The notes under the pieces: generated by a model
What the model was told of the DNA's origin: nothing
Seen by the model: only the letters and a program-made list of their open reading frames with translations
The model's database searches: none
Position numbers and translations under genes: made by a program
Origin: Candidatus Fervidifonticultor primus
Lineage (GTDB): Bacteria > Sysuimicrobiota > Sysuimicrobiia > Sysuimicrobiales > Humicultoraceae
Reading direction: 5' to 3'
Assembly: GCA_031459855.1 (NCBI GenBank)
Contig: JAVKHP010000001.1
Coordinates: forward strand, 2,702,309-2,766,308
Length of the DNA: 64,000 nucleotides
Part shown: positions 5,480 to 24,171 of the stretch, in pieces
How positions within the stretch are numbered: the stretch's first letter is position 1
Layout of the letters: each line of letters opens with the position of its first letter

Positions 5480-6661
5480 CTACGCCTGTCGCGCGGGCTC
5501 CAGCGCCCGCAGACGGCGGCGTACCTCCTCGAGGGTCTCGCGGCGCTTGGGGTAGGCGAACCGCACGTACCGCCGGCCCGCGGCGGGCTCGTGGTAGAAG
5601 CTGCTGCCCGGCACGACCCCGACCCCGCAGCGCTCGACCAGCATGCGGGCGAAGGCGACGTCGTCGAGGCTCCCGAACCGGCTGGTGTCGGCCATGATGT
5701 AGTAGGCGCCGCGGGGAGCCAGACACCGGAACCCGGCGTCGGTCAGGATCGCCAGCAGCAGGTCGCGCTTCTCCTGGTAGCTGGCGGCCAGCTGGGTGTA
5801 GTACTCCCGCGGGAACCGCAACGCGACGGCGCCAGCCTCCTGGAGCGCCGCGGCCGCGCCCACCGTCAGGAAGTCGTGCGCCTTCCGGATGCCGTCGGCG
5901 ATGGCGGGGTCCCCGGCGATGGCCCAGCCCACCCGCCAGCCGGTGACGCTGTAGGTCTTGGACATGCTGTTGATGGTGACGGTGCGCTCGAACATGCCGG
6001 GCAGCGCCGCCAGGCTGACGTGCACGGCACCGTCGTAGACGATGTGCTCGTACACCTCGTCGGTGATGGCCAGGGCGTCCCACTGCTGGCACAGCGCCGC
6101 GATCTGCTCCAGCTCGCCCCGACTGAACACCTTGCCCGTGGGGTTGTGGGGGGTGTTCACGATGATCGCCCGTGTGCGCGGGCCAAACGCGGCTTGCAGA
6201 TCGTCAGGGTCGAACGGCACGCCGGGGGCATCGAGGTCGAGGCGGACGTAGCGCAGGGTCGCCCCCGACAGCAGCGCGTCGGGCCCGTAGTTCTCGTAGA
6301 AGGGCTCGAACACCACCACCTCGTCGCCCGGGTCCAGTACGGCCAGCAGCGTGGCCATCATGGCCTCGGTGGCGCCGCAGGTCACCGTGATGTGCCGGTC
6401 GGGATCCACCGCCAGCCCGTTGTACCACGCGACCTTCTCGGCCAGCGCTGCCCGGAAGCGCGGCGACCCCCAGGTGACGGCGTACTGGTTCCACCCGTCG
6501 CGCAGCGCCTGGACGGCCGCCTCCACCAGCTCGGCCGGCGCGTCGAAGTCGGGGAACCCTTGGGCCAGGTTGATGCCCTGGTGCTGCTCCGTGATGCGGG
6601 TCATCTCCCGGATGACCGACTCCGTGAACAGGTTCACCCGTGCCGCTGTCGTCCGCCTCAC
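5480..6661 (-). CDS. Class I/II PLP aminotransferase (YbdL / kynurenine-oxoglutarate / methionine aminotransferase type).
   Basis: INLAQGFPDFDAPAELVEAA..., NTPHNPTGKVFS, SMSKTYSVTGWRVGW (Lys of the PLP site) motifs. Confidence 0.85.
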   Translation of the reverse strand: MRRTTAARVNLFTESVIREMTRITEQHQGINLAQGFPDFDAPAELVEAAVQALRDGWNQYAVTWGSPRFRAALAEKVAWYNGLAVDPDRHITVTCGATEAMMATLLAVLDPGDEVVVFEPFYENYGPDALLSGATLRYVRLDLDAPGVPFDPDDLQAAFGPRTRAIIVNTPHNPTGKVFSRGELEQIAALCQQWDALAITDEVYEHIVYDGAVHVSLAALPGMFERTVTINSMSKTYSVTGWRVGWAIAGDPAIADGIRKAHDFLTVGAAAALQEAGAVALRFPREYYTQLAASYQEKRDLLLAILTDAGFRCLAPRGAYYIMADTSRFGSLDDVAFARMLVERCGVGVVPGSSFYHEPAAGRRYVRFAYPKRRETLEEVRRRLRALEPARQA

Positions 6662-6701
6662 CCTCGACCTCCTTGCACGCTTCCGGGGAATGGCCGGCCG
6701 C

Positions 6702-8918
6702 TCAGGTGGGCACCACCCGGGCGACGCTGAAGACCTCGGGCACCTTCTCGATCTTCTGCATCACCCCATGGAGCTGGCCGACGTTGCGAATGTCCAGCAC
6801 GATGTTGGTCACCGCCACCTTGTCCTTGCGAATGCGGGCGTTCACCGAGACCACGTTGGTCTTGGTCTCCGCGATGGCGGCCAGGATGTCCTTGAGCAGC
6901 CCCACCCGGTCGAACGCCTCCACCTCCACCTCCACCTGGTAGGGGCCCTCGTGGGTGCGCTCCCACTCCACCTCCATGACGCGCTCGGGGTGCGCGCGCA
7001 GGAAGGCGATGTTGGGACAGTCGCTCCGGTGGATCGTCACGCCTCGCCCCCGGGTGACGTAGCCGACGATCCGGTCCCCGGGCAGCGGCGTGCAGCAGCG
7101 GGCGAAGTGCATCAGGACGTTGTCGACCCCGCGCACGCGCACGCCGCGCGACGCCTGGGCCGGCGGCGCGGCCGAGGGTACGGGCGCCGCGGGGGCCTCC
7201 GCGGCCGGCGCCTCGCCCCGCAGCGCAGCGACCACCTGCAGCAGCGAGACGTCGCCGTTGCCGATGGCGGCCAGCAGCTCCTCCTCGGACCGCAGCCGGA
7301 ACTGCTCGGCGACCTCGCGCAGGCGCTCGGCCTTCATGGCCGCGGCCACGGCGCCGGTGCGGCGCAGCTCGCGCTCCAGCAGCTCCCGGCCCCGGGCCAC
7401 GTTCTCCTGGTGGCGCTCGCGCTTGAACCACTGCTTGATCTTCGAGCGGGCGTTGCTGGTGACCACGAACGTCAGCCAGTCGCGGCTCGGCCCCGGGCTC
7501 GACTTGTTGGTCACGATCTCCACGATGTCGCCGGTGTGGAGCTTGTGCGACAGGGGCACCAGCCGCCCGTTCACCCGGGCGCCCACGGTGTGGTGGCCGA
7601 CGTCGGTGTGGATGCGGTAGGCGAAGTCGACCGGTGTGGCACCCGCCGGGAGGTCGATGACGTCGCCCTTGGGGGTGAACACGAACACCTCGTTCTGGAA
7701 CAGGTCCAGCCGCACCGACTCCACGAACTCCCGGGCGTCGGCGAGGTCCTGCTGCCACTCCAGCAGCTGCCGCAGCCACGCCAGCTTGCGCTCGACCTCG
7801 CGTTCGGCGGCCGAGCCCTGCTTGTACTTCCAGTGGGCCGCGATCCCGTACTCCGCCTCGTGGTGCATCTGGTGGGTGCGGATCTGGATCTCCAGCGGCT
7901 CGCCCTCGTAGAGCACGGCGGTGTGCAGCGACTGGTAGCCGCTGGTCTTGGGGGTGGCGATGTAGTCGTCGAACTCGCCGGGAATGGGCTTCCACAGCGA
8001 GTGCACCACGCCCAGCGCCGCGTAGCAGTCCTTCACGTCGTCCACCAGGACGCGGATGCCCAGCCGGTCGTAGATCCGGGCGATGCTCTGGCCAGCGTAC
8101 TTGGGCCGCTGCAACTTCTTCCAGATGCTGTAGAGGTGCTTGGGGCGCCCGGTGATGTGCCGGCGGTCGACCTTGATGCCCGCCTTCTGCAGCTCGCGAT
8201 GCAGCACGGCGCACACCCGGTCCACCAGCGCCTGGCGGGCCTCTTCGGCCTGCGCCAGCTCCCGGGCGAGCTCGGCGTAGGTCTCGGGGTGCAGCTCGCG
8301 GAACGCCAGGTCCTCCAGCTCCTTCTGGAGGCTCCCGATCCCCAGGCGTTCGGCCAGCGGGGCGTAGATGTCCAGGGTCTCCTGGGCCGTGCGCTTGCGC
8401 TTCCACTCGGGCAGGGGCGCGATCGTCCGCATGTTGTGGAGCCGGTCGGCGAGCTTGATGAGCACGATGCGGACGTCGTTGGCCATGGCCAGGAACATCT
8501 TGCGCAGGCTCTCGGCCTGGCGTTCTTCGCGGCTCTGCCACTCGATCTTGCCCAGCTTGGTCACCCCGTCGACCAGGCCGGCGATCTCGGCGCCAAATCG
8601 CTCCCGCAGCTCGGCCGCCTCCACGCCGGTGTCCTCCAGGACGTCGTGGAGCAGGGCCGCCGCCACGGTCGTGGGGTCGAGGTGCAGGTCCGCCAGGATC
8701 GTGGCCACGGCCACGCAGTGCGAGATGTAGGGATCCCCCGATGCCCGCATCTGGCCCTCGTGGGCCTGGGCAGCGGCCAGGTACGCGTCACGCACCACGT
8801 CCAGGTCGGCCTTGGGGAACCGCTGGCGCAGCGTCGCCACCAGGCTCTGCACCTCGGGTGGCAGCGCCTGGAAGCTGCGGGGTTGTCGGAACAGGTCCAG
8901 CCACTTCACCGGCGTCAC
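6702..8918 (-). CDS. rel: Bifunctional (p)ppGpp synthetase/hydrolase Rel (RelA/SpoT).
   Basis: HD domain (HCVAVATILADLHLDPTTVAAALLHDVLEDT), synthetase domain, TGS and ACT domains all recognisable. I chose the GTG start at 8918 (VTPVKWL) so the gene does not overlap the recJ 3' end. The ORF-track start at 9095 is also possible. Confidence 0.88.
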   Translation of the reverse strand: MTPVKWLDLFRQPRSFQALPPEVQSLVATLRQRFPKADLDVVRDAYLAAAQAHEGQMRASGDPYISHCVAVATILADLHLDPTTVAAALLHDVLEDTGVEAAELRERFGAEIAGLVDGVTKLGKIEWQSREERQAESLRKMFLAMANDVRIVLIKLADRLHNMRTIAPLPEWKRKRTAQETLDIYAPLAERLGIGSLQKELEDLAFRELHPETYAELARELAQAEEARQALVDRVCAVLHRELQKAGIKVDRRHITGRPKHLYSIWKKLQRPKYAGQSIARIYDRLGIRVLVDDVKDCYAALGVVHSLWKPIPGEFDDYIATPKTSGYQSLHTAVLYEGEPLEIQIRTHQMHHEAEYGIAAHWKYKQGSAAEREVERKLAWLRQLLEWQQDLADAREFVESVRLDLFQNEVFVFTPKGDVIDLPAGATPVDFAYRIHTDVGHHTVGARVNGRLVPLSHKLHTGDIVEIVTNKSSPGPSRDWLTFVVTSNARSKIKQWFKRERHQENVARGRELLERELRRTGAVAAAMKAERLREVAEQFRLRSEEELLAAIGNGDVSLLQVVAALRGEAPAAEAPAAPVPSAAPPAQASRGVRVRGVDNVLMHFARCCTPLPGDRIVGYVTRGRGVTIHRSDCPNIAFLRAHPERVMEVEWERTHEGPYQVEVEVEAFDRVGLLKDILAAIAETKTNVVSVNARIRKDKVAVTNIVLDIRNVGQLHGVMQKIEKVPEVFSVARVVPT

Positions 8919-9006
8919 CCGCGCCGGGCCGCATGTCGCCCGACGCCGCGACAATATCGTAGCAAATTCGCGGTGGACGACCGGCTCCCTGCGCCCTGCG
9001 CCCCGC

Positions 9007-12000
9007 CTACCCGGCGGCCAGGTCGGCCAGCAGCGTGGCGGCGGGCCCGCCTGCCCAGGCGCGCAGGGCGGCCAGGGCCGCTCGCGCGCGCTCACCCTCG
9101 ACGTACCGCAAAGATCGATGCAGCGGCACGCGCCCGGCCACGTCGGCCAGCGTGTAGCGCACCGTCCCCAGATCCTCGCGGGTGAGCACGCCGGCCTCGG
9201 TCAGGATCGCCAGCGCGGCCTCGAGCTGGAGCGGACTGCAGCCACTCCCCTCCAGCACGGGCGACTGGTCCGGTGCGCCCGCGACAGTCCCTCCGGCCGC
9301 GCGGATGGCGCGGTAGCAGCGTACGAGCACGTCCCGCGGGGGAAACGTCTCCGCCAGCGCACCCTCGGCCGCCGCCAGGTGGTCGGGGCCGTACGCCAGG
9401 ATCACCGTCGCGCGCCGCCCGTCCGCCCCGGCCAGGGCCAGCTCCTCGACGGCCAGCAGGGGATCGGGACGGAGGCCCAGCGCGACGACGCGGCGCACAT
9501 CGGGGCAGATCGCGGGCGCGGTCGCGTGCGTCCCCAGCACCAGGCAGTCGAGCCGGCCGGCCCCGAACAGGTCCTCGAGCACCCGGCGCAGGGTCGCGGG
9601 CAGCCCGGCGTGGTAGTACGCGATACGGTCGTCCCGTCCGTCCTGGCGCATCCCTGCGGCGACCGTCACGCTGGTGGCGGGGTCGGCGACGATCACGACG
9701 GTCTTCCCGTCCTTGCCGTTCGCCCTCGGGCCTGCCCAGACGTCGGCCCCGCCGCCACGGCGGTCGACCAGCCTCAGGGTCTCGCGTGCTCCGCCGCCGA
9801 CCGCCACCATCGACAGACCGCGGGCCGCACACCGACGCACCAGAGCGTCCGGCAGCGGGCCCACCACGAGTCGCACGACCTCGCCGGCACGGTCCAGCAG
9901 GCGCTCGAGATCCTCTGCCGCCAGCGCGTCGGCCACGACGATGGCCGCAGCCACGGCGTCGGGGTGACGTTCCACCCACGGCAGCGATGCGATGAGCACG
10001 TCGAGCCGGTCCCCGGCCAGCGCTTCGGCCACCCGGCCGGCGACGGTCGGCGAGGCCGCGCCGTGGATGGCGGCCGCGCGCACGCCAAGAGCTCGCAACC
10101 ACGGCGCGGCGAGCTCCCACCACGCGTCGGCCACCGCTGCGCGCGGCACGGCCAGCACCGTGGGGCGTCGTCCGCGTGCCAGCACCGCAAGGGCAGCGAT
10201 GATCGCGGAGGACACCAGCCCGCGTCCGGGGCCCAGGGGCACCACCAGGCGCTCGCCACGGCGCAGACGCCCCCACGCGTCACGCTGCGCACAGGTGGGC
10301 GCACGGCCGCGCAGCAGACCGGCCACGAGCGCGTCCGGGACGTCGGTCTCCTCCGGCCAGTGCACCCGGCTGATGGTGTCGTCTGCCTCCGGATCGGCCA
10401 CCCCGGTGCGCTCGACCAGGATGTTGAGGCCCCAGGACCGCGCACCGCCGCCGGTCACCGCGGTGGCCGTGGCGACGTACCGTGCGCCGGCGTCCATGGC
10501 AGGGGCGAGGTGCGCGGCGAGGCGCGCCCGCAGAAACCCCAGGTGCGTGCCATCCAGCCGGCAGACCGCGATGGCATACGGGTCGCGCGGGTTGGACGGC
10601 TCGCGTACCAGACGCAGCCGCTCCCCGGGCTGCACCCTGGGCACCACGGCCTGTCGTCCGGCGTAGGTCACCCCCACGACCTTGGTGTGGAATGCGCCGG
10701 CGTGCTCCAGCGGGCGTCGGCCGCTCTCGAGCGCATCGAGGTAGTCGGACGCCCGGGCGAACAACCGCTCGAGCACCTGGCGCGTATCGGTCGCCACCGC
10801 GTCCAGGTCGACCCCCGGTGTGACCATGTCCACGGCGACCAGCCGGAGCGCAGGGGCATCGCCCCAGGTGTCCAGCGCGAGGGTGTACGCAAGGTCCACC
10901 GAGGCCTGGGTGAAGGCCAGGAGTTCGGCCTTCTCGCCTTCCCGGAAGGCGATCACTTCTGCCGTACGGTGGCCGTCGCCGACCACCAGGCGCAAGTGCG
11001 TCCCGTCGCCGACGAGGCGTGTCGCCACCGCCCGCAGCCCGCGGGTAGCGAACACCGGCTCGGGGTTGCCCGGGCCGTGAGGGGCCAGGAGGCCCAGGGC
11101 GTCGACGAGGTCCTGGGAGAGAGCCTCCAAACCCACCTCCGCGTCGATCGCCACGATCGGGCGCAGGTCGTCGGCCGTGACCCTGGCTGCCACGGCGTCC
11201 TCGAACGCGCGGGCGAAGGCGTCGACGGCATCGGCGGCGATGGACAGGCCGGCGGCCATGGCGTGGCCCCCGTAGGCCAGCAGGTGGCTGTCCGCCGCGC
11301 GCAGCGCCTCGACCAGATGAACCGCGGGGACGCTGCGCGCCGAGCCCCGGCCGCTGCTACCCTCCAGGGCGATCAGCACCACCGGGCGGTACAGGCGCTC
11401 TGCCAGCTGGGAGGCCACGATCCCGACCACGCCCGGATGCCATCCTTCCTGCGCCAGGACCACCGCCAGGCGCACCCCCAGCCCATCCCGCTGCACGCGC
11501 TCGAGCGCCTCGGCGAACACGGCGTCACACAGCTGGCGCCGCTGCCCGTTCAACCGATCGAGGGTCTGCGCCAGCGCGCGTGCCTCCTGCGGGTCCTCGG
11601 TGAGTAGCAGGCGCACGGCGTCCCGGGCGTCGGCCAGCCGACCGGCGGCGTTGAGCCGCGGCGCCAGGCCATGCGAGACGTCCCGCACCACAAACGGCGA
11701 CCGCAGCCCGGCGACGTCGGCGAGCGCGGCCAGGCCCGGCAACGTTCGGCGGGCGAGGTGCGCCAGTCCGACGGCGACCAGCACGCGGTTGTCGTCGAGC
11801 AACGTCACCGCATCGGCGATCGTGCCCACGGCGGCCAGCGCGACCAGGTCCGCGGGCACCATATGGCCCCGGCGGGCGAACAGCGCGCGGGCGAGCTGGA
11901 GGGCCAGTCCCGCAGCGCAGTAGTCCCCTGGGCGGGGCGACTGCCGTTTGGGGTTGACGAGGGCGGCAACGGCGGGGAGCTGCTCCGGGGGCTCGTGGTG

Positions 12001-12510
12001 GTCCAGGATCACGACGTCCACCCCATGCGCACGGGCCACGTCGGCAGCGGCATGGGCCGTGGTCCCGCAATCCACGGCGAGCAGCAGCCCGGCCCCGCGC
12101 GTTGCCAGCGTCGCGACCGCCTCCGGGTGGAGCCCGTACCCGTCGCGGCGTCGGTCGGGCACGTAGAAGTCGACGTTGCCACCCAGCGTCCGCAGTGCGC
12201 GCACGAGGATGGCCGTGGCCGTGACACCGTCGGCGTCGTAGTCGCCGTAGACCACGATGGGCCGGCGCGCTTCCAGCGCGCCGGCCACGCAGGCCACCGC
12301 CCGGGCCATGTCCGCCAGCTGCAAGGGATCCTGAAGCCGGTCCAGGTGGGGAGCGAGGAACGCCTGGGCGGCCTGCGGGTCGCGCAGCCCGCGGTTGACC
12401 AGCACCCGCGCCACCAGCGGATGCACGCCCAGGGCTGTGGTCAGGGTGGCTGCCGCCGGATCTGCCGGCGCAATCCGCCACCGGGTCCCCTGCCCCTGCG
12501 TGTGCGTCAC
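9007..12510 (-). CDS. recJ: RecJ single-stranded-DNA exonuclease (DHH, DHHA1, OB) fused in frame to a HIRAN domain and a degenerate RecQ-like helicase core plus RQC-like C-terminus. About 1170 aa.
   Basis: DHH motifs (VVYGDYDADGVTA, VDCG, DHHEP), DHHA1 (GGHAMAAG) and an OB fold, then HIRAN (VVGVTYAGRQ...GERLRLVREPSNPRDPYAIAV...LGFL), then a RecQ-like fold with lost catalytic motifs (GPGRG in place of GGGKS, ADALA in place of DEAH) and a helicase-C-like IAYYHAGLPATLRRVLEDLFGAGRLDCLVLGTHATAPAICPDVRRVVALGLRPDPLLAVEELALAGADGRRATVILAY. It is a single open frame. Start is probably the GTG at 12510; the ORF-track start is 12633. Confidence 0.85.
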   Translation of the reverse strand: MTHTQGQGTRWRIAPADPAAATLTTALGVHPLVARVLVNRGLRDPQAAQAFLAPHLDRLQDPLQLADMARAVACVAGALEARRPIVVYGDYDADGVTATAILVRALRTLGGNVDFYVPDRRRDGYGLHPEAVATLATRGAGLLLAVDCGTTAHAAADVARAHGVDVVILDHHEPPEQLPAVAALVNPKRQSPRPGDYCAAGLALQLARALFARRGHMVPADLVALAAVGTIADAVTLLDDNRVLVAVGLAHLARRTLPGLAALADVAGLRSPFVVRDVSHGLAPRLNAAGRLADARDAVRLLLTEDPQEARALAQTLDRLNGQRRQLCDAVFAEALERVQRDGLGVRLAVVLAQEGWHPGVVGIVASQLAERLYRPVVLIALEGSSGRGSARSVPAVHLVEALRAADSHLLAYGGHAMAAGLSIAADAVDAFARAFEDAVAARVTADDLRPIVAIDAEVGLEALSQDLVDALGLLAPHGPGNPEPVFATRGLRAVATRLVGDGTHLRLVVGDGHRTAEVIAFREGEKAELLAFTQASVDLAYTLALDTWGDAPALRLVAVDMVTPGVDLDAVATDTRQVLERLFARASDYLDALESGRRPLEHAGAFHTKVVGVTYAGRQAVVPRVQPGERLRLVREPSNPRDPYAIAVCRLDGTHLGFLRARLAAHLAPAMDAGARYVATATAVTGGGARSWGLNILVERTGVADPEADDTISRVHWPEETDVPDALVAGLLRGRAPTCAQRDAWGRLRRGERLVVPLGPGRGLVSSAIIAALAVLARGRRPTVLAVPRAAVADAWWELAAPWLRALGVRAAAIHGAASPTVAGRVAEALAGDRLDVLIASLPWVERHPDAVAAAIVVADALAAEDLERLLDRAGEVVRLVVGPLPDALVRRCAARGLSMVAVGGGARETLRLVDRRGGGADVWAGPRANGKDGKTVVIVADPATSVTVAAGMRQDGRDDRIAYYHAGLPATLRRVLEDLFGAGRLDCLVLGTHATAPAICPDVRRVVALGLRPDPLLAVEELALAGADGRRATVILAYGPDHLAAAEGALAETFPPRDVLVRCYRAIRAAGGTVAGAPDQSPVLEGSGCSPLQLEAALAILTEAGVLTREDLGTVRYTLADVAGRVPLHRSLRYVEGERARAALAALRAWAGGPAATLLADLAAG

Positions 12511-12610
12511 CTCGCCACCATCACTGCAGGTCTGAGGCGACGTCGCCCCGCCTCCGTCCTCGTCCGGCGCGTCAGGCGGGACCTGGAACACCACAGCGGG
12601 CCGGGGACGC

Positions 12611-12725
12611 GCTGCACGTCGGTTCCCGCCCATCGCGCGCTGGCACCAAGACGTCGACGACTTCGTGCGTGGGAACGCCGATGGGAACGATGTGCACCTC
12701 GGTTCCCGCCCATCGCGCCGGCACC
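12611..12725. repeat. Two about 26-35 nt direct repeats (TGCAC(G/C)TCGGTTCCCGCCCATCGCGC...GGCACC), 80 bp apart, with a partial inverted copy between them, in the recJ upstream region.
   Basis: Copy 1 at 12611-12647, copy 2 at 12691-12725. GGGAACGCCGATGGGAACG at about 12671-12689 is partly complementary to the repeat core. Confidence 0.45.
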
Positions 12726-16681: not shown

Positions 16682-17530
16682 TCAGCGCGGGACCACCCGG
16701 AACCGCAGGTACCACTCGCGGACGTCGGGCGCGCGATACTGGTACTCGCTGACGAGGACGAGCTGCGCCCGCGCGCCGCCCAGCAGACCCGCCAGCACCC
16801 GCGGGTCGGGGACGCCGGCGATCTGCGCGGTGACGGTCACGAACAGCTCGTCGACCAGGCCGGCGTCGGCCAGCCGACGGTTGAACGCGGGGCCGCCCTC
16901 CGCCAGCAGGCGGCGCCATCCGCGCGCCGCGAGCAGCCCCAGGGCAGCAGCGAGATCGACCTCGCCGCCGGGACCGACCGGCGTGACGAGCACCTCCGCA
17001 CCGGCTGCTTCCAGCTGGCGCCGGTCGGCTGCGCGCGCGAGTTCGGTGGTCAGGACCACGGGCCGCACCTCGCCGTGGGTGAAGAACCGCTTGGCCAGCA
17101 CCTCCGGGGCGAACTCCGCCCGCCGCGTAACGACGACGGCTGCGGGGTTCGCCGGGCGGCCGCTGGCGCGGCGGGCGGCCTGCAGCACCGGATGGGTGAC
17201 CGCCACCACGTCGTTGCGACGCAGGGTGCCTGCGCCGCTGAGTACCGCATCGGCCCAGCCCCGCAGGGTGTGGAACAGGTAGTGATCGACCGCGGAGCCG
17301 AGCGTCCACGCCCTGCCGTCGACCGCCACGGCGCCGTCGAGGGTCTGCACCATGTTGACGATCACCGCCGGCCGGTCGGCCGGGACGCGTACGTCCAGGT
17401 CGCGGTAGACCTCGGCCAGCGGCTCGGTCGCCGGAAAGGGTCGGGAGGCGTGGTACACCAGGTGGAGCACGTCGGGCAGAGCGTCCGGCCCGTCGTGGCG
17501 GCGCGGTGCGTCAGAACTCAATGACCGCAC
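16682..17530 (-). CDS. RibD C-terminal domain / dihydrofolate-reductase-like reductase (bacterial bifunctional deaminase-reductase C-terminal domain family).
   Basis: VIVNMVQTLDGAVA...GGPAFNRRLADAGLVDELFVTV is typical of the RibD_C family. Confidence 0.8.
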   Translation of the reverse strand: MRSLSSDAPRRHDGPDALPDVLHLVYHASRPFPATEPLAEVYRDLDVRVPADRPAVIVNMVQTLDGAVAVDGRAWTLGSAVDHYLFHTLRGWADAVLSGAGTLRRNDVVAVTHPVLQAARRASGRPANPAAVVVTRRAEFAPEVLAKRFFTHGEVRPVVLTTELARAADRRQLEAAGAEVLVTPVGPGGEVDLAAALGLLAARGWRRLLAEGGPAFNRRLADAGLVDELFVTVTAQIAGVPDPRVLAGLLGGARAQLVLVSEYQYRAPDVREWYLRFRVVPR

Positions 17531-18905
17531 CGGCGTGCACGAGCCGCCGCTGTACCTCGCGCACCAGGTCGGGCTCTGCAGCCAGCTGGTGCGGGGTCAC
17601 CCCGTGCTCGACCGCCACCGCCGCCGCCACGCCCACGGCCTGCCCCATGGCCATGGTGGTGGGCACGACCCGGGCGGAGCCCGCCGCCTGGTAGGTGGCC
17701 GAGAACGCCCGGCTGGCGACGAACAGCCCGTCCACGCCGGCGGTGACCAGCGCCCGCAACGGGATGGTGTACATCCGCCGTACGGGCTTGAACGGGTAGC
17801 GCTCGCCTTTCCGGTACTGGTGCAGGTCGATCGGGTACGAGCCGACCGCCACGCGATCCCAGAACACCCGGCTCGCGGCGATGTCGTCGGCGGTGAGCGT
17901 GTAGAGACCGGCCAGGTGACGGGTCTCGCGGACGTAGAGCTCCGGCGCGAGTTCCACCAGCCGCGCACGCTCGAATCCCGGCACGTGCGCTCGCAGGTAC
18001 GCCAGCAGCCGCGGGATCTCGGCGCGCGCGCGCTCGTACCCCTCGCGCACCGAGGCGGGATCGGTCCCGTCGACGTCGTGCACCTGCAGGGCGTTGATCC
18101 AGATGGTCCCGTCGGGCAGCCGTCCCAGGTTGAGGTCATGGGCCGAGGTCCGCTCGTCGGCCGCCTGGTAGTTGAACATCAGGTCACGGAACCCCCACGC
18201 GTAGCCGCCCAGCGCGCCGCTGGGCTGGCGGCCGCGCCGGTGCGACCAGGCGTAGTGGACGGCCGCGCGCCAGTCGACGCCGGCCACGCGGAACAGGAGC
18301 GTGGCGGGCATCGCCCGGCGGTCCAGACCCGAGGTCTCCCGCCCGTAGGTGAACCGCACACCGGCCGCCGCCGCGAGGTCGCCGTCGTCGGTGGCGTCGA
18401 TCACCACCGCTGCCCTGGCCGGCCGGACCTCGCCGTCGGGGAACCGCAGGAGGGCGCCCTTGACCCGCGCGCCGTCGCGCAGCGGTCGGACGACCTCGGT
18501 CTGGAGGAGGAGCTGGATCCCCGGCTCGGCCTCGACGAGCTCGCGCAGGACCCGGCGCGCGTGCCGTGGGTCGAACGTGACCCCCCCGAGCCGCCCGTAG
18601 ACCTCGAGGAAGATGCCGCGGACGAGGTGCTCGCCGTTGGGCTTGCGGCTGAGGTCCACCATGTTGAGCATCGCGCCCGTCCACACGGTGCCCAGGTAGG
18701 GCCGGCGCTCGACCAGCAGCACCGTGCGCCCCTGGCGGGCCGCCGCCACCGCGGCGGCCACCCCCGCCGGGCTGCCGCCGACCACGAGGACGTCGGCAGC
18801 GAGCACCGGGGGCCGCAGGTCCCGCCGCAACATCTGGGGACGCGCCAGGACCAGCACCACGCCGCCCAGGCAGGCGAGCAGGGCGGCCAGCGCCCGGGCC
18901 CGCAC
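17511..18905 (-). CDS. FAD-dependent oxidoreductase (FAD_oxidored family) with an N-terminal signal/anchor.
   Basis: VLVVGGSPAGVAAAVAAARQGRTVLLVE Rossmann GxGxxG motif after the MRARALAALLACLGGVVLVLA hydrophobic segment. Confidence 0.8.
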   Translation of the reverse strand: MRARALAALLACLGGVVLVLARPQMLRRDLRPPVLAADVLVVGGSPAGVAAAVAAARQGRTVLLVERRPYLGTVWTGAMLNMVDLSRKPNGEHLVRGIFLEVYGRLGGVTFDPRHARRVLRELVEAEPGIQLLLQTEVVRPLRDGARVKGALLRFPDGEVRPARAAVVIDATDDGDLAAAAGVRFTYGRETSGLDRRAMPATLLFRVAGVDWRAAVHYAWSHRRGRQPSGALGGYAWGFRDLMFNYQAADERTSAHDLNLGRLPDGTIWINALQVHDVDGTDPASVREGYERARAEIPRLLAYLRAHVPGFERARLVELAPELYVRETRHLAGLYTLTADDIAASRVFWDRVAVGSYPIDLHQYRKGERYPFKPVRRMYTIPLRALVTAGVDGLFVASRAFSATYQAAGSARVVPTTMAMGQAVGVAAAVAVEHGVTPHQLAAEPDLVREVQRRLVHAGAVIEF

Positions 18906-18915
18906 GGCCGCGCGC

Positions 18916-19425
18916 CTAGTCCGCGGGCTGCCGCGCTGCCGGTGCTGCTAGCGGGACGGGGTCGCCGGGCGGCTTGAAGCGCTCGATGGGATTGCGGCAG
19001 TCGCGGCAGTAGTAGACTGCCCGGCACAGCGTGGGGCCAAACGCGTTCTCCAGGACGGTGTTCGTCGAGCCGCAGTAGGGGCAGGCCGCGGGCTCGGCCA
19101 GGGTCCGGTGCGGGACGCTGAGCCCGTGAGCCGACAGCCGCGCGCGCGCCGCGGGCGTCAGGCGGTCCAGGGTCCAGGGCACGTCGTACCGGAACTCGAC
19201 GTCGGCGCCGCGCACCCCCGGCAGCTCCAAGACCCGGGCGCGCACCCGCGCGCGGATCACCTCGAGCGCCGGACAGCCCATGAACGTGGGCACCAGGAGC
19301 ACCCGCACCCTGTCGTCGCAGACCTCGACCGTCTCCACGAGGCCCAGGTCCGTGATGGCCACGGGCAGTTCCGGGTCCTCGATGGTCCCCAACGCCCGCC
19401 AGACCTCGTCACGGGTCACTGCCAT
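18916..19425 (-). CDS. paaD: Phenylacetate-CoA oxygenase subunit PaaD (DUF59 plus C-terminal zinc ribbon).
   Basis: ITDLGLVETVEV...PTFMGCPA...CPYCGSTNT...CRDCRNPIERFK. Confidence 0.85.
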   Translation of the reverse strand: MAVTRDEVWRALGTIEDPELPVAITDLGLVETVEVCDDRVRVLLVPTFMGCPALEVIRARVRARVLELPGVRGADVEFRYDVPWTLDRLTPAARARLSAHGLSVPHRTLAEPAACPYCGSTNTVLENAFGPTLCRAVYYCRDCRNPIERFKPPGDPVPLAAPAARQPAD

Positions 19426-19431
19426 GGATAC

Positions 19432-20232
19432 TCACCAGCGCGCGGTGGGATCGGTACGCCACACCGACGTCATCTCCTCCAGGAGCGCCTGCAGCGCGGC
19501 CGTGTGGTGGCCGCGCCGGCCGCCGGTGGCCGCGGCCACCGATGGGGGACGCAGGCCCAGCGTCTCCAGACGCGGTCGCACGGCGGCCTCGAACCGGCCG
19601 CGCTGTGCCACCGGCCCGGCGGGCAGCAGCCCGTCGCCGACCAGGCGCGCGTGATCGTCGGTCTCCTCGAACAGCCCGAGGGCGTCGGGCCAGATGGCGT
19701 CCAGCGCCGCCTGGAGCCGGGCGGTCGCCTCGTCGCCGGCGCGGGCCAGGCGCACCAGCCACGCATCGCTGAACAGGAGGTGGTACTTCTCCTCGCGCTG
19801 CAGCGCTCTGGCCAGCGCCGCGAACGGGCCCAGGGGCGCGTCGGCCAGGTCGGCCAGCCGGACGGCATCGGCGTGATCGTACAACCATGCGCGCACGATG
19901 GTGAAACCCCAGTCGCCGTTGGGGTGCTCGACCAGCACCGCGTTGCCAAACGCTGGCGCGTCCCGCCCGAAGGCGAGCCCGTCGGGTGTCGCCCCGGTCG
20001 CCGCCGCGACCTGCTCGTAGAGCACGCGGGCGTGCCCGAGCTCCTCCTGGGCGATCGACGACAGCGCGACGTCGGACTCGATGTCCGGCGCGAACCCCGT
20101 CCACTCCGCGTGGCGGTGGCCCAGGATCAGCTCGTCGTCGGCCCAGGCCCGCAGCACACCGCACAGCGCGGCCTGGACGGCGTCGTCCCGCAGGGCGACG
20201 GGCGCATCGGCCGCCGTCCACAGCCCGGTCAT
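19432..20232 (-). CDS. paaC: Phenylacetate-CoA oxygenase subunit PaaC.
   Basis: LILGHRHAEWTGFAPDIESDVALSSIAQEELGHARVLYE is the PaaC (PaaI) family signature. ATG at 20232 overlaps the paaB stop (ATGA). Confidence 0.8.
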   Translation of the reverse strand: MTGLWTAADAPVALRDDAVQAALCGVLRAWADDELILGHRHAEWTGFAPDIESDVALSSIAQEELGHARVLYEQVAAATGATPDGLAFGRDAPAFGNAVLVEHPNGDWGFTIVRAWLYDHADAVRLADLADAPLGPFAALARALQREEKYHLLFSDAWLVRLARAGDEATARLQAALDAIWPDALGLFEETDDHARLVGDGLLPAGPVAQRGRFEAAVRPRLETLGLRPPSVAAATGGRRGHHTAALQALLEEMTSVWRTDPTARW

Positions 20233-20531
20233 CGCCGGCGGTAGACCCGTTGCTGCTCCCGGTACGAGCCGCCGAACCGGTAGCTCTTGTCGGTGGCGGG
20301 CGCGAAGAGGTCGGCGTCCTCGTAGCGGGTCGCCGTGATGTCGGTGTAGCGCACGACCCAGAGGTTCACGCACGGGTCGCGCCGGGCGAACTGTTCCTTG
20401 GCCAGCACCAGCGCCATCTCCGGATCGGGCGCGTGCACATCACCCACGTGCACGTGGGGCTCGGCCTTGGAGTCCTGCCGGAAGACGGCGAAGACGGACG
20501 CGGCCTCGGGGACCACGTCGCCCAGGTTCAC
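20229..20531 (-). CDS. paaB: Phenylacetate-CoA oxygenase subunit PaaB.
   Basis: VFAVFRQDSKAEPHVHVGDVHAPDPEMALVLAKEQFARRDPCVNLWVV...DKSYRFG aligns along its full length with PaaB. Start is uncertain (GTG at 20531 chosen). Confidence 0.75.
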   Translation of the reverse strand: MNLGDVVPEAASVFAVFRQDSKAEPHVHVGDVHAPDPEMALVLAKEQFARRDPCVNLWVVRYTDITATRYEDADLFAPATDKSYRFGGSYREQQRVYRRR

Positions 20532-20637
20532 GGCCGCGGCCCGCTGCCGGGAGTCCACCGCCTGGTCGCCTCGCGTCGTGCCGCGCCGCGGCCTGCGGAT
20601 CCGCGGCGTCTGGAGCAGGCCGCCCTCCCCCGGCGCC

Positions 20638-21585
20638 CTACGCGGCCGCCGCCCATCGCCCCAGCGCCTCGCGCACCCACTGGTGCTGCGCGTGGTAGCG
20701 GTTGCGCAGCTCCAACCGGGCCCGCGTCCTGGGGCCCTCGCCACGCAGGATGCGCCGGAACTCGTCCCAGTCGGGCTCGGTGTAGACGTACTGGCCCGTG
20801 GCCTCGTCCCACCGCAGGCCCGGATCCGGAACCCGCAGCCCGTACTCCTGGATGAGCGGCACGAACTGGCGCAAGAACTGCTGGCGCAGCTCGTCGTTGG
20901 TCTTGACCTTGATGCGCCAGCGCATCATCTGCTCGAGGTGGGGCGACGCCTGGTCGCGGGGGCCGAAGAAGTGCATCAACGGCGTCCACCAGCGGTCCAG
21001 CGCGTCCTGCAGCATCGCCCGCTGCGCCGGCGTGCCCTCGGCCAGCGCCTTGAACCCGTCGATCCCCAGCCGGATGTGGAAGTCTTCTTCGTAGCAGATC
21101 CGGCGCAGCACCCGGGCGTAGGGGGCGTACGAGCAGGCGCGCAGCGCCCCCTGGGTCTGCATCGCCGCGCCGTCGACGAACACCTGGATGACCACCACGT
21201 CGGCCCACGTCTCGGCGGGGTAGTGGAAGACGTTGTGGAACTTGGCCCGGCCCGCCAGCAGGTCGTCGATCATGGCCGCACGGGGCCGGCCCAGGTCCTC
21301 GGCGACGCGGTAGAGCAGCTGGGCGTGCCCGATCTCGTCCTGCACCTTGGCGATCAGCGCCATCTTGCGCGCCAGCGTCGGTGCCCGGGGAATCCACTCG
21401 CGCTCGGGCAGCGCGCCCATCAGCTCGGAGTTGGCGTGCATCTGGATCAGCCGGAGGCACTCGGCGCGGTAACGCGCGGGCATCCACTCGCCCGCCTCCA
21501 CCCGTTCGCCGGCGGCGATCCGCGCCTCGAACGCCGCCAGCTGTTCGGGATCGTCCTCGGGCGCTGCCGGCTGGTGATGCATCAT
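20638..21585 (-). CDS. paaA: 1,2-phenylacetyl-CoA epoxidase catalytic subunit PaaA.
   Basis: Di-iron ferritin-like PaaA sequence (EWMPARYRAECLRLIQMHANSELMGA...DEIGHAQLLY...EEDFHIRLG). ATG at 21585 with a GGGGAG RBS. Confidence 0.85.
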   Translation of the reverse strand: MMHHQPAAPEDDPEQLAAFEARIAAGERVEAGEWMPARYRAECLRLIQMHANSELMGALPEREWIPRAPTLARKMALIAKVQDEIGHAQLLYRVAEDLGRPRAAMIDDLLAGRAKFHNVFHYPAETWADVVVIQVFVDGAAMQTQGALRACSYAPYARVLRRICYEEDFHIRLGIDGFKALAEGTPAQRAMLQDALDRWWTPLMHFFGPRDQASPHLEQMMRWRIKVKTNDELRQQFLRQFVPLIQEYGLRVPDPGLRWDEATGQYVYTEPDWDEFRRILRGEGPRTRARLELRNRYHAQHQWVREALGRWAAAA

Positions 21586-21616
21586 CCGGTCACTCCCCGC
21601 CCCACGATCGTGTCCC

Positions 21617-21645
21617 ATTGTACGCACCCGGCGCGTGCGCTTCAA
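21617..21645 (-). promoter_or_regulatory. Candidate promoter TTGAAG-N17-TACAAT upstream of paaA.
   Basis: Minus strand reads gtgTTGAAGcgcacgcgccgggtgcgTACAATggg, about 25 nt before the paaA ATG. The -35 overlaps the stop of the upstream HIT gene. Confidence 0.4.
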
Positions 21646-22172
21646 CACCCTCGGTCAGGGTGTTTCGGATCGAGCTGCACCTGGGCACGCGACGTGGTCA
21701 CCAGCGCAGCCTGCAGCCGATCGTAGGTCTCCGTCAGGTGCTGGGGTAGCACCTTGGTCGCCGCCAGCACCGGCATGAAGTTCGTGTCACCCACCCATCG
21801 GGGGACCACGTGCACGTGCAGGTGGTCCTCCACCCCTGCCCCCGCCGCCCGCCCCAGGTTCAGGCCGATGTTGAACCCCTGGGGGGCCAGCGCGGCCTCG
21901 AGCGCGCGCACCGCCAGCGCGGTGACGGTCACCAGCGCGCCGGCCTCGTCGCCGGTCAGCGCGTCCAGCCGGGCGGCGTGGCGGTAGGGGACGACCATCA
22001 CGTGTCCGCTGTTGTACGGAAACTGGTTGAGCATGATGAACGCGTGGGCCGCGCGGTGGACGATGAGCCGGCCCCGGTCGTCGCCGGCGGCGAGCGCGTC
22101 GCAGAAGATGCAGCCGTCGGGCTTGGGCGCCATGACGTAGACGCCGCGCCACGGGGCCCACAGCACGTTCAT
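21642..22172 (-). CDS. HIT family protein (histidine triad nucleotide hydrolase/transferase).
   Basis: HVMVVPYRH...[12 protein letters not shown] is the HxHxHxx triad. ATG at 22172 overlaps the rnc stop (ATGA). Confidence 0.8.
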
Positions 22173-22930
22173 GGCCCGCCCCGGTCCAGGCGCGCCAGCG
22201 CCTGCGCGGCCGCGGCCTGCTCCGCTTCCTTCTTGCTGCGGCCGCGCCCCTCGCCCAGGAGCTTGCCGCCCGCCTCCACCACCGCCACGAAGACGCGGGC
22301 ATGGTTGGGGCCTTCTTCCTGCGTGATGCGGTAGCGCGGCATCTGCCCCCGCCGCTGCAGGCGCTCCTGGAGCTGGCTCTTGAAGTCCTGGCCGGCGCGC
22401 TGCATCTCCTCGGCCAGGTCGGCGATCCACCGGGACACCACCGCGTGCGCCACGCCGTAGCCGGAGTCCATGTAGATGGCGCCGATCACCGCCTCCACCG
22501 CGTCGGCCAGCAGTGCCGGCCGCTGGCGACCGCCGCCCTTCTCCTCCCCCTTCCCGAGCAGGATGTACCGCGCCAGCCCCAGCCGGCGCGCGATGGAGGC
22601 CAGGGCCGCCTCGTTGACCAGGCGCGCCCGCTGCTTGGCGAGCCCGCCCTCGTCCACGTCGGGATACCGGCGGTAGAGGTCGTCGCTGACCACCAGGCTC
22701 AGCACCGCGTCGCCCAGGAACTCCAGCCGCTCGTAGCTCTTCAGCGGGGCGCCGCGCTCGTGACTGAACGACCCGTGGCGCAGCGCCAGGTCCAGCAGCG
22801 AGCGGTCGCGAAAGCGCACGCCCAGGCGCTCCTCCAGCTGCGCCAGCTGCGCCAGCCGCTCCTGCGAGAGCACCTCGCCGACGGCGCCGGTCTCGTCCGG
22901 CGGGCTCGGGCCGCGCAGGGGTCTCACCAT
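22169..22930 (-). CDS. rnc: Ribonuclease III.
   Basis: [20 protein letters not shown] catalytic signature plus a C-terminal dsRBD ([12 protein letters not shown]...[16 protein letters not shown]). ATG at 22930. Confidence 0.9.
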
Positions 22931-24171
22931 ACGGCCCGGAGCACCAGGGTGGCGTTGTGGCCCCCGAAGCCAAAGGCGTTGGACATGACGGTGCGGAGCC
23001 GCGCCGGGCGCGCGGTGTTGGGGACGTAGTCCAGGTCGCACTCGGGGTCGGCCACCCGGTAGTTGATGGTCGGGGGGATCACCTGATGGCGCAGCGCCAG
23101 ACAACAGGCGATCGCCTCGACGCCGCCGGCGGCGCCCAGCAGGTGGCCGGTCATCGACTTGGTGGAGCTGACGGCGAGCCGGCGGGCGTGGGGCCCGAAG
23201 GCGCGCTTGATGGCCAGCGTCTCCAGGCGGTCGTTGTAGGACGTGCCGGTCCCGTGGGCGTTGATGTAGTCCACCGCCTCGGGGGGGAGCCCGGCATCGC
23301 GCAACGCCGCCGCCATGGCACGGGACGCGCCGTCGCCCTCGGGGTCGGGCTGGGTGATGTGGTGGGCGTCGGTGCTGGTGCCGTACCCGACGAGTTCGGC
23401 GTAGATGGGCGCGCCACGCCGCTCGGCCACCTCCAGGGCCTCCAGGAGCACCACCCCGGCGCCCTCGCCCATGACGAACCCGTCCCGGGTGGCGTCGAAC
23501 GGCCGTGATGCGCCCGCCGGGTCGTCGTTGCGGGTCGTCATCGCCTTCATCGCCGCAAACCCCGCCAGCGACAGCGGCGTGATGGCGGCCTCCGACCCGC
23601 CGGCCAGCATCGCGTCGGCCTCGCCGTACTGGATGAGGCGCGCCGCATCACCGATGGCGTTCCCGCCCGTGGCGCACGCGGTCACCACGCCCTGGCTGGG
23701 CCCCTTGGCCCCGATTAGGATGGCGGTCACGCCGCTGGCCATGTTCCCGATGACCATGGGCACGAAGAACGGCGAGACGCGGTCGGGGCCGCGCTCGATG
23801 AGGGTACGGTGCTGGGCCTCCCAGGTGATGACCCCGCCCATGCCCGAGCCGATGACGACGCCCACCCGCGTGGCGTTGGCGGCCGTGATGGTAAACCCCG
23901 CGTCCTCCAGCGCCAAGCGGGCGGCCGCGTAGGCGAACTGCACGAACCGGTCGTTGCGCCGTGCTTCCTTACGGTCCATGAACGCCGTGGGGTCGAAGTC
24001 CGGCACCTCCGCGGCGATCTGCGTGGCGAACCCCGAGGGGTCGAACGCCGTGATGCGCCGGACGCCGGACCGTCCGGCCACCAGCCCGGCCCAGAAGGCC
24101 TGATGGCCGATGCCCAGGGGGGTGACGACCCCCAGCCCGGTCACGACGACCCGCCGCCGCGTGGGTGCCAC
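22924..24171 (-). CDS. fabF: 3-oxoacyl-ACP synthase II.
   Basis: [15 protein letters not shown]..., active-site ACATG, HGTGT and GHLLGAAG motifs. GTG start at 24171 with an AGGTGG RBS. The 829-aa ORF-track frame is an out-of-frame upstream extension. Confidence 0.9.

Follow-up and report, generated by a model that had tools for sequence, protein, structure and literature searches.

A RecJ nuclease fused to a HIRAN domain and a motor-dead RecQ-like helicase module in Candidatus Fervidifonticultor primus belongs to a widespread family of long RecJ proteins

We analysed a 64,000-nucleotide stretch of the genome of Candidatus Fervidifonticultor primus (contig JAVKHP010000001.1, positions 2,702,309 to 2,766,308), hereafter the window, in whose own numbering positions are given. 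One gene of the window encodes a RecJ nuclease core that runs on, in the same frame, into a HIRAN domain and a helicase-like tail. The local gene order is Dtd, two aminotransferases, Rel, the fusion, LapA_dom, SecF and SecD, and every gene lies on the minus strand, as do all features of the fusion described below. The maximal open reading frame (ORF) of the fusion gene occupies 9007..12633 (-) and holds 1208 codons plus the stop, with no stop or frame break inside. Against a Bacillota orthologue whose helicase motifs are intact (P0018, MEW6724600.1, from a metagenome-assembled genome, MAG), tblastn returned one collinear high-scoring segment pair spanning residues 52-1202 at 36% identity (E=2e-168); residues are counted from the maximal ORF. 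The true start codon is probably the GTG at 12508..12510 (V42), which gives a protein of 1167 aa. The equivalent GTG opens the ORF of the orthologue on a near-identical MAG contig (L001; 94% identity, 1167 aa), and the DNA upstream of it has no in-frame conservation. Residues 1-41 of the maximal ORF are probably not translated.

The surroundings of the gene are shared with its relatives. The gene arrangement in Ca. Fervidifonticultor tertius (phylum Ca. Sysuimicrobiota; L002) equals that of the window, and the locus of the intact P0018 reads SecD-SecF-...-LapA_dom-[fusion]-apt-RelA/SpoT-Dtd-...-HisS. Overall, the secDF-lapA-recJ-(apt)-rel-dtd locus carries an intact member (L005) and degenerate members (window, L002) alike. 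This locus identifies the fusion as the housekeeping recJ orthologue rather than a gene of a defence island or a mobile element.

The window is very GC-rich (GC approximately 0.70-0.76) and long chance ORFs are common in it. Therefore, the frame of the fusion had to be validated, since recJ could have been joined to a downstream gene by an error of sequencing or assembly, or by a chance ORF in high-GC DNA. High-GC genomes do yield long spurious ORFs, and a 944-aa ORF lies antisense over rel. This ORF and another of 931 aa, at 6351-9185 (+) and 8812-11607 (+), are among the very long ORFs that lie opposite rel and the recJ fusion; without the GC3/GC2 pattern of coding DNA, they are typical high-GC artefacts rather than genes. 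The fusion ORF, by contrast, has GC contents of 0.83, 0.54 and 0.88 at the first, second and third codon positions, a coding signature, and this pattern is uniform in each 100-codon block, including residues 600-800 and the junctions between RecJ, HIRAN and tail. The same uninterrupted frame is present in L001, in Ca. F. tertius (1161 aa, 52% identity, collinear throughout), in a JGI metagenome fragment (P0001) and in an 'Armatimonadota' MAG (P0003). In all, at least five independent assemblies and hundreds of database clusters contain the same collinear protein. The junction itself, a conserved helical linker between the RecJ core and HIRAN (residues 601-645; 10699..10833), is in frame in all orthologues, and its ratio of nonsynonymous to synonymous substitution (dN/dS, calculated here and below by the Nei-Gojobori method for the window versus L001) is 0.07, which indicates purifying selection across the junction. 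The orthologues, the coding GC3 and this dN/dS refute the artefact reading, whose remaining probability is negligible. An earlier reading of the same DNA, made from its letters and ORFs alone (the sequence-only reading), had proposed one unbroken frame of about 1170-1208 codons at the recJ locus and had asked for a check for a stop or frameshift around residues 600-640. The single frame holds, and such a break is excluded, as is a pseudogene in decay.

The N-terminal half of the protein is a normal RecJ core, as that reading had stated. It comprises the DHH catalytic domain (residues 126-271; 11821..12258; Pfam PF01368, E=3.5e-22), the DHHA1 domain with its GGHAMAAG motif (residues 390-482; 11188..11466; PF02272, E=6e-15) and the RecJ OB fold (residues 496-600; 10834..11148; PF17768, E=4.2e-22), with matches to the RecJ structures 5f54 and 2zxo at E of about 1e-78. 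The Pfam matches to DHH, DHHA1, RecJ_OB and HIRAN are all well above their gathering cutoffs. The NCBIfam model TIGR00644 (recJ) scored 468.8 bits over residues 71-600, against an equivalog cutoff of 396.9. All RecJ catalytic motifs are intact: GDYDADG, VDCG, LDHHEP, GTIAD, PRLNAAGR and GGHAMAAG. From these motifs, the window protein is predicted to be a 5'-3' exonuclease on single-stranded DNA (ssDNA). Thus far the protein resembles canonical RecJ (T. thermophilus 2ZXO, D. radiodurans 5F54, E. coli; TIGR00644) in its DHH/DHHA1 core, OB fold, motifs and locus. Compared with characterised RecJ proteins of 666-757 aa, however, it adds a C-terminal extension of approximately 600 residues, made up of the linker, HIRAN, a pseudohelicase, a winged-helix-like unit and further helices.

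The first domain of this extension, HIRAN (residues 646-740; 10414..10698), is the most conserved part of the protein (74% identity to L002). PF08797 matched residues 646-724 with 52.3 bits against a gathering cutoff of 24.7, the domain has the HIRAN fold, and its earlier identification was correct. HIRAN domains of HLTF were among the weak PDB matches of the window protein. The N-P-x-D motif of the 3'-end pocket is kept, SNPRDPYAI in the window aligning with NNPYDKNAI in HLTF. By analogy with HLTF, the domain may bind a free 3'-OH end of ssDNA. Behind HIRAN follows a poorly conserved linker of low model confidence (residues 741-766; 10336..10413), with a predicted local distance difference test score (pLDDT) of 54-70. 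It belongs to the stretch 741-790, where dN/dS reaches 0.63-0.93 and which is the sole near-unconstrained part of the protein.

The remainder of the tail is a RecQ-like pseudohelicase. RecA-like lobe 1 (residues ~767-940; 9814..10335) carries degenerate versions of four motifs: the P-loop motif I, GPGRGLVS (residues 801-808; 10210-10233), motif Ia, VPRAAVADAW (10120-10149), motif II, VVADAL (residues 899-904; 9922-9939), and motif III, LVVGPL (9853-9870). RecA-like lobe 2 (residues ~941-1082; 9388..9813), recognised by alignment with RecQ, contains the strongly conserved segment IAYYHAGLPATLRRVLEDLF (9565-9624), a degenerate motif V, GTHATAPAICPDVR (9493-9534), and a degenerate motif VI, ELALAGADGRRA (9409-9444), which includes LAGADGRR at residues 1066-1073; the arginine finger of QxxGRAGR is gone. 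Next comes a helical hairpin with a winged-helix-like unit (residues ~1083-1165; 9139..9387). The hairpin occupies the position of the RecQ zinc subdomain, and beyond lobe 2 there are just two cysteines, Cys1106 and Cys1132, compared with the four of the RecQ zinc site. The protein ends in two family-specific helices (9010..9138; alignment consensus RSLRYxEGxRERA...WAxGPA) which are absent from RecQ. Their sequence in the window, RSLRYVEGERARA...RAWAGGPA, is a C-terminal signature common to intact and degenerate members of the family.

We compared these motifs with those of intact relatives. The intact set reads GTGRGKS, PLRALxxDQ, DE[AS]HH, TATA, TSAFGEGxDIPD and QxxGRAGRDG, against GPGRGLVS, VVADAL, LVVGPL, GTHATAPAICPD and LALAGADGRR in the window. 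Lost are the Walker A lysine and Ser/Thr, the Glu-His pair of DExH, the TAT of motif III, the core of motif V and both arginines of motif VI; the region of the aromatic-rich loop following motif II is deleted. The losses of Walker A, DEAH and arginine finger listed by the sequence-only reading are thereby borne out. With motifs I, II, III, V and VI all gone, the module should be unable to bind or hydrolyse ATP in the canonical way. One might still suppose an active ATPase or translocase working through non-canonical residues, given that the glycine pattern GPGxG of the P-loop is conserved in the clade and that an acidic residue stands near motif II (VVAD). The simultaneous loss of Walker A, DExH, TAT, motif V core and motif VI arginines, together with the loop deletion, makes an active motor highly improbable.

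How, then, can the tail be assigned to a helicase family? The isolated tail (residues 741-1208) had no Pfam match even at E<=10, and RecQ models reached it only at E of about 0.03-0.3. For TIGR00614, the window protein scored 9.6 bits, and its intact relatives 149-195 bits over model positions 6-346 only, against a cutoff of 219.8. Nevertheless, RecQ was the nearest helicase family by profile (4tmu, 2.8e-64, versus about 1e-33 for Hel308). NCBIfam recQ_fam was the best helicase model, and RecQ remained the closest family when the degenerate clade was taken alone. No match to Pfam RecQ_Zn_bind (PF16124), RQC or HRDC was found in any family member tested; HRDC (PF00570) was likewise unmatched in the window protein, which ends approximately 45 residues past the winged-helix-like unit. 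A single-sequence AlphaFold model of residues 610-1208 was unusable (pLDDT 39), and a model based on a multiple sequence alignment was used instead. For HIRAN plus tail, this model was confident and RecQ-like (pLDDT 90.6; predicted template modelling score, pTM, 0.86) and placed two RecA-like lobes, a helical hairpin and a winged-helix-like unit in this order within the 470-aa tail. The structure prediction called for by the sequence-only reading thus gives RecA-like lobes with destroyed ATP motifs. Of its proposed collinearity with RecQ, the lobes and RecQ as closest family stand; at the place of the RQC winged helix the model shows a winged-helix-like unit, with no Pfam RQC match. There is no zinc site, and the score lies below the TIGR00614 cutoff. 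By profile and predicted fold, the tail is a RecQ-like superfamily 2 (SF2) helicase core, not a bona fide RecQ. The RecQ core (E. coli 1OYW, C. sakazakii 4TMU; human WRN, BLM, RECQ1 and RECQ5) is its best match on both counts, and in comparison the tail is without ATPase motifs, four-cysteine zinc site, Pfam RQC match and HRDC.

Overall, the architecture turned out to be common. A word-indexed protein search with the tail returned two matches, the orthologue P0001 and P0002, a genuine RecQ-family helicase with 33% identity to the tail over approximately 190 residues. The rarity suggested by this search was overturned by an exhaustive profile search with the tail, in which 438 cluster representatives matched at E<=1e-3, 143 of them at E<=1e-10. 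The fusion is thus no one-off, which could not be seen in the sequence-only reading. Many of the matches are proteins of 1100-1300 aa with the tail at approximately 720-1200 (tail-profile positions ~20-476), the same layout as in the window. About 59 of the 73 full-length members (~80%) have intact motifs and thus an active-looking helicase, and 13 of the 73, including the window protein, are degenerate. Among the named sources are Peptococcus simiae and MAGs labelled Bacillota, Clostridia, Eubacteriales, Actinomycetota and Armatimonadota. Intact members, for example those of Peptococcus simiae (WP_408977392.1; P0033) and the Bacillota MAG (P0018), share with the window the locus including the upstream LapA-domain gene, the C-terminal signature and end-to-end collinearity. 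They keep GTGRGKS, DExHH, TATA, TSAFGEGxDIPD and QxxGRAGRDG, none of which survives in the window protein; Pfam recognises nothing in that region of it.

Pfam detection is graded across the family. Intact members show DHH, DHHA1, RecJ_OB, HIRAN, DEAD and Helicase_C. In P0010 and P0016 the motifs are lost and DEAD and Helicase_C are still detected; in the window protein and P0003 they are no longer detected. This series connects the window tail to an active helicase. Databases label the family members only as 'single-stranded-DNA-specific exonuclease RecJ', and the architecture from DHH to Helicase_C is visible in the domain annotation of public proteins. Our literature search found no paper on a RecJ-HIRAN-RecQ-like architecture, and an earlier mention in subscription literature is possible. 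The earlier impression of an undescribed architecture therefore survives as regards the searched literature; the architecture is not unique to the window, the same layout recurring throughout a large family. On domain content and motif comparison, we place the window gene as a motor-dead branch of a widespread, unnamed RecJ-HIRAN-RecQ-like family whose parts are all known domains. We hold this anatomy and family placement to be nearly certain.

The HIRAN domain is less constant than the rest. It was found throughout the window clade and in 50 of the 72 full-length members overall, and was missing in 22. In the HIRAN-less members (P0037, P0077, P0121, P0124 and 18 more) a low-complexity linker joins the RecJ core to the helicase, and in P0072 HIRAN appears degenerate. 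By this domain census, HIRAN is optional in the 'long RecJ' family. A free-standing combination also exists: P0049 is a 633-aa protein of HIRAN plus a RecQ-like helicase with intact motifs (L006 632-2533, Logan SRR30413548). Its upstream gene is unrelated to RecJ and an alpha/beta-hydrolase gene lies downstream. The presence of this protein at an unrelated locus implies that HIRAN and helicase form one evolutionary module, which became attached to RecJ. P0049 can be regarded as a bacterial analogue of the HIRAN-motor arrangement in HLTF and Rad5. We also considered that shorter matches could be split pairs of recJ and HIRAN-helicase genes. For P0049 this was ruled out by the unrelated upstream gene, and for P0014 the contig was too short.

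To place the degenerate members, we utilized a neighbour-joining tree from BLOSUM62 distances over the RecJ core only, a crude tree without branch support. The dead-motor window clade is monophyletic in it and nested among intact proteins. Its members (window, L001, L002, P0003, P0010, P0011, P0015, P0016 and P0065) come from Ca. Sysuimicrobiota and 'Armatimonadota' MAGs. Outside this clade, the dead P0102, P0115 and P0146 and the partly degenerate P0122 each adjoin intact relatives. These four come from Eubacteriales and Bacillota MAGs, and three of them are also without HIRAN. P0122, with GKS and DEcQ still present, may represent motor loss at an early stage. The crude, unsupported tree suggests that the helicase motor was inactivated at least four times independently.

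A module that loses its motor could simply decay. The tail would then be a neutral relic with no function beyond leaving the folding of RecJ undisturbed, and such a relic would look in part like what we see: every catalytic motif is lost, Pfam does not recognise the tail, the tail is the fastest-evolving part of the protein and the 741-790 linker is hardly constrained. Selection, however, acts on the rest. The tail as a whole has a dN/dS of 0.35, its lobe-2 segment one of 0.10 and HIRAN likewise 0.10, compared with 0.21 in the RecJ core. Moreover, approximately 470 residues have persisted without stops or large deletions across lineages that are 44-52% identical, the alignment-based model is confidently folded, and three or four more lineages kept the module after motif loss. 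Judged by its substitution pattern, the tail is kept under purifying selection, and we regard the relic explanation as very unlikely.

What could a kept, motor-dead module do? RecJ requires a 5' ssDNA tail, and RecQ unwinds DNA in the 3'-5' direction, which supplies this tail in RecF-pathway resection and at stalled forks. RecQ is reportedly the partner of RecJ in this resection. Intact members could accordingly combine RecQ and RecJ activities in a single chain for 5'-strand resection at DNA ends, gaps and stalled forks, in which HIRAN would sense the 3'-OH end. The window protein, in our proposal, would be an ATP-independent 5'-3' resection nuclease targeted to ends and junctions, in which the dead helicase and HIRAN together form an ATP-independent scaffold for DNA recognition. 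HIRAN would grip the 3'-OH end, the pseudohelicase and winged-helix-like unit would grip the junction between single- and double-stranded DNA or the complementary strand, and the 5' strand would thereby be led into the RecJ active site. Another helicase, or breathing of the end, would open the duplex. Clade-specific residues do persist at the ssDNA-contacting motifs Ia and Ib ('LPRAxxADAW' and 'DVxxAS..W'). We consider the chances of this scaffold mechanism, which draws on analogy, to be evenly balanced.

Alternatively, the dead module may be chiefly a domain for protein interaction or autoregulation, docking RecJ to SSB, RecA, RecOR, a helicase or the replisome, or gating RecJ. The tail segments most conserved in the clade, 'IAYYHAGLPxxLRRVLEDLF' in lobe 2 and 'RSLRYxEGxRERA..WAxGPA' at the C-terminus, are not classical nucleic-acid contacts; the C-terminal helices are common to intact members and absent from RecQ; and the pTM of 0.86 suggests that HIRAN packs against the helicase lobes to form a single body. 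This alternative sits less well with the clade-conserved remnants at motifs Ia and Ib and with the retention of the winged-helix-like unit, and no gene for an interaction partner is encoded near the fusion in the window locus. We regard it as unlikely, though less so than decay.

Several observations also weigh against the scaffold proposal. The tail evolves faster than the RecJ core (45% versus 58% identity to L002), which is compatible with relaxed constraint, and it diverges much faster than the neighbouring Rel, SecD, SecF and LapA-domain proteins, which are 73-81% identical between the window and L002 (74-81% for Rel, SecD and SecF). The tyrosine that precedes the conserved aspartate of N-P-x-D in HLTF is an arginine here, so that the 3'-end pocket may differ. 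Furthermore, that the protein acts as an exonuclease, that its HIRAN domain binds 3' ends and that its dead module binds DNA are predictions from sequence. With anatomy, family placement and scaffold mechanism blended, we nevertheless consider the explanation as a whole to be the best one and probably right.

Comparison with known systems helps to locate the proposal. HLTF, Rad5 and SHPRH likewise have HIRAN N-terminal to an SF2 core, the window protein retains the N-P-x-D signature, and HLTF HIRAN is said to bind the 3'-OH end of ssDNA and so direct fork remodelling. In the window protein, by contrast, the helicase module is RecQ-like rather than SNF2, has no RING, is fused to a nuclease and is dead. 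WRN (a DEDD exonuclease with RecQ) and B. subtilis DinG (a DEDD exonuclease with an XPD-like helicase) are likewise covalent fusions of exonuclease and helicase. The nuclease of the window protein differs in being DHH and 5'-3' instead of DEDD and 3'-5', the domain order is another and the motor is inactive. The best functional precedent is RecC in RecBCD and AddB in AddAB, where a helicase fold without ATPase motifs is kept as a scaffold for DNA handling; these motor-dead folds reportedly scan ssDNA in resection machines. They are superfamily 1 folds in multi-subunit enzymes with an active motor elsewhere and with Chi recognition, whereas a comparable role in the window protein is suggested by analogy.

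Some features around the gene deserve mention in their own right. The fusion ORF is overlapped at its 3' end by the maximal rel/spoT ORF (6702..9095, minus strand), over at most 89 nt (window 9007-9095), and the corresponding overlap in L002 is 47 nt (L002 9277-9323). Rel may start further downstream, near 'VKWLDL', or the genes may overlap, with translational coupling possible. The N-terminal extension of Rel may look conserved only because the RecJ C-terminus overlaps it. At the 5' end, the leader between the LapA-domain gene (end 12743) and the probable recJ start at 12510 is unusually long, approximately 233 nt. It holds several short inverted repeats and a 36-nt direct repeat (12603-12638 and 12683-12718; 86% identical, 80-nt spacing), whose core has no further copy in the window, where 0.04 would be expected by chance. 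The second copy contains the ATG of the maximal ORF. An Rfam search of the leader upstream of the fusion gave no match. As the lapA-recJ spacer of L002 is approximately 15 nt, the long leader is a lineage-specific insertion. Upstream of secD, 16682-21648 (-) encodes a RibD_C protein, an FAD-dependent oxidoreductase, a PaaD-like Fe-S assembly protein and two PaaA/PaaC-family proteins, which form a phenylacetyl-CoA oxygenase-like cluster, followed by RNase III at 22169-23104. None of these ordinary metabolic and housekeeping genes is connected with the fusion.

In the RecF pathway, and in the processing of nascent strands at stalled forks, RecQ and RecJ form the classical pair of helicase and nuclease, and work on them has treated two separate proteins. 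In many bacteria of this family they are fused at the housekeeping recJ locus, together with HIRAN, which is known as a reader of 3' ends from the eukaryotic fork remodellers HLTF and Rad5. The family would thus offer a single-chain system for the coupling of unwinding, 5' degradation and 3'-end recognition. Annotation as 'RecJ' alone conceals a helicase in most members and a pseudohelicase in some. The motor-dead branches are natural separation-of-function variants, which suggests that the helicase body is useful without ATP. More tentatively, and with doubts that outweigh our confidence, the family may serve several phyla as a housekeeping recJ that unites a RecQ-like helicase, the RecJ nuclease and a HIRAN 3'-end sensor in a single chain, and the repeated loss of its motor with retention of the fold may point to an essential job that is independent of ATP, for instance the guidance of a junction or strand in 3'-end-anchored 5' resection; the helicase body would then be a new pseudohelicase scaffold alongside RecC and AddB.

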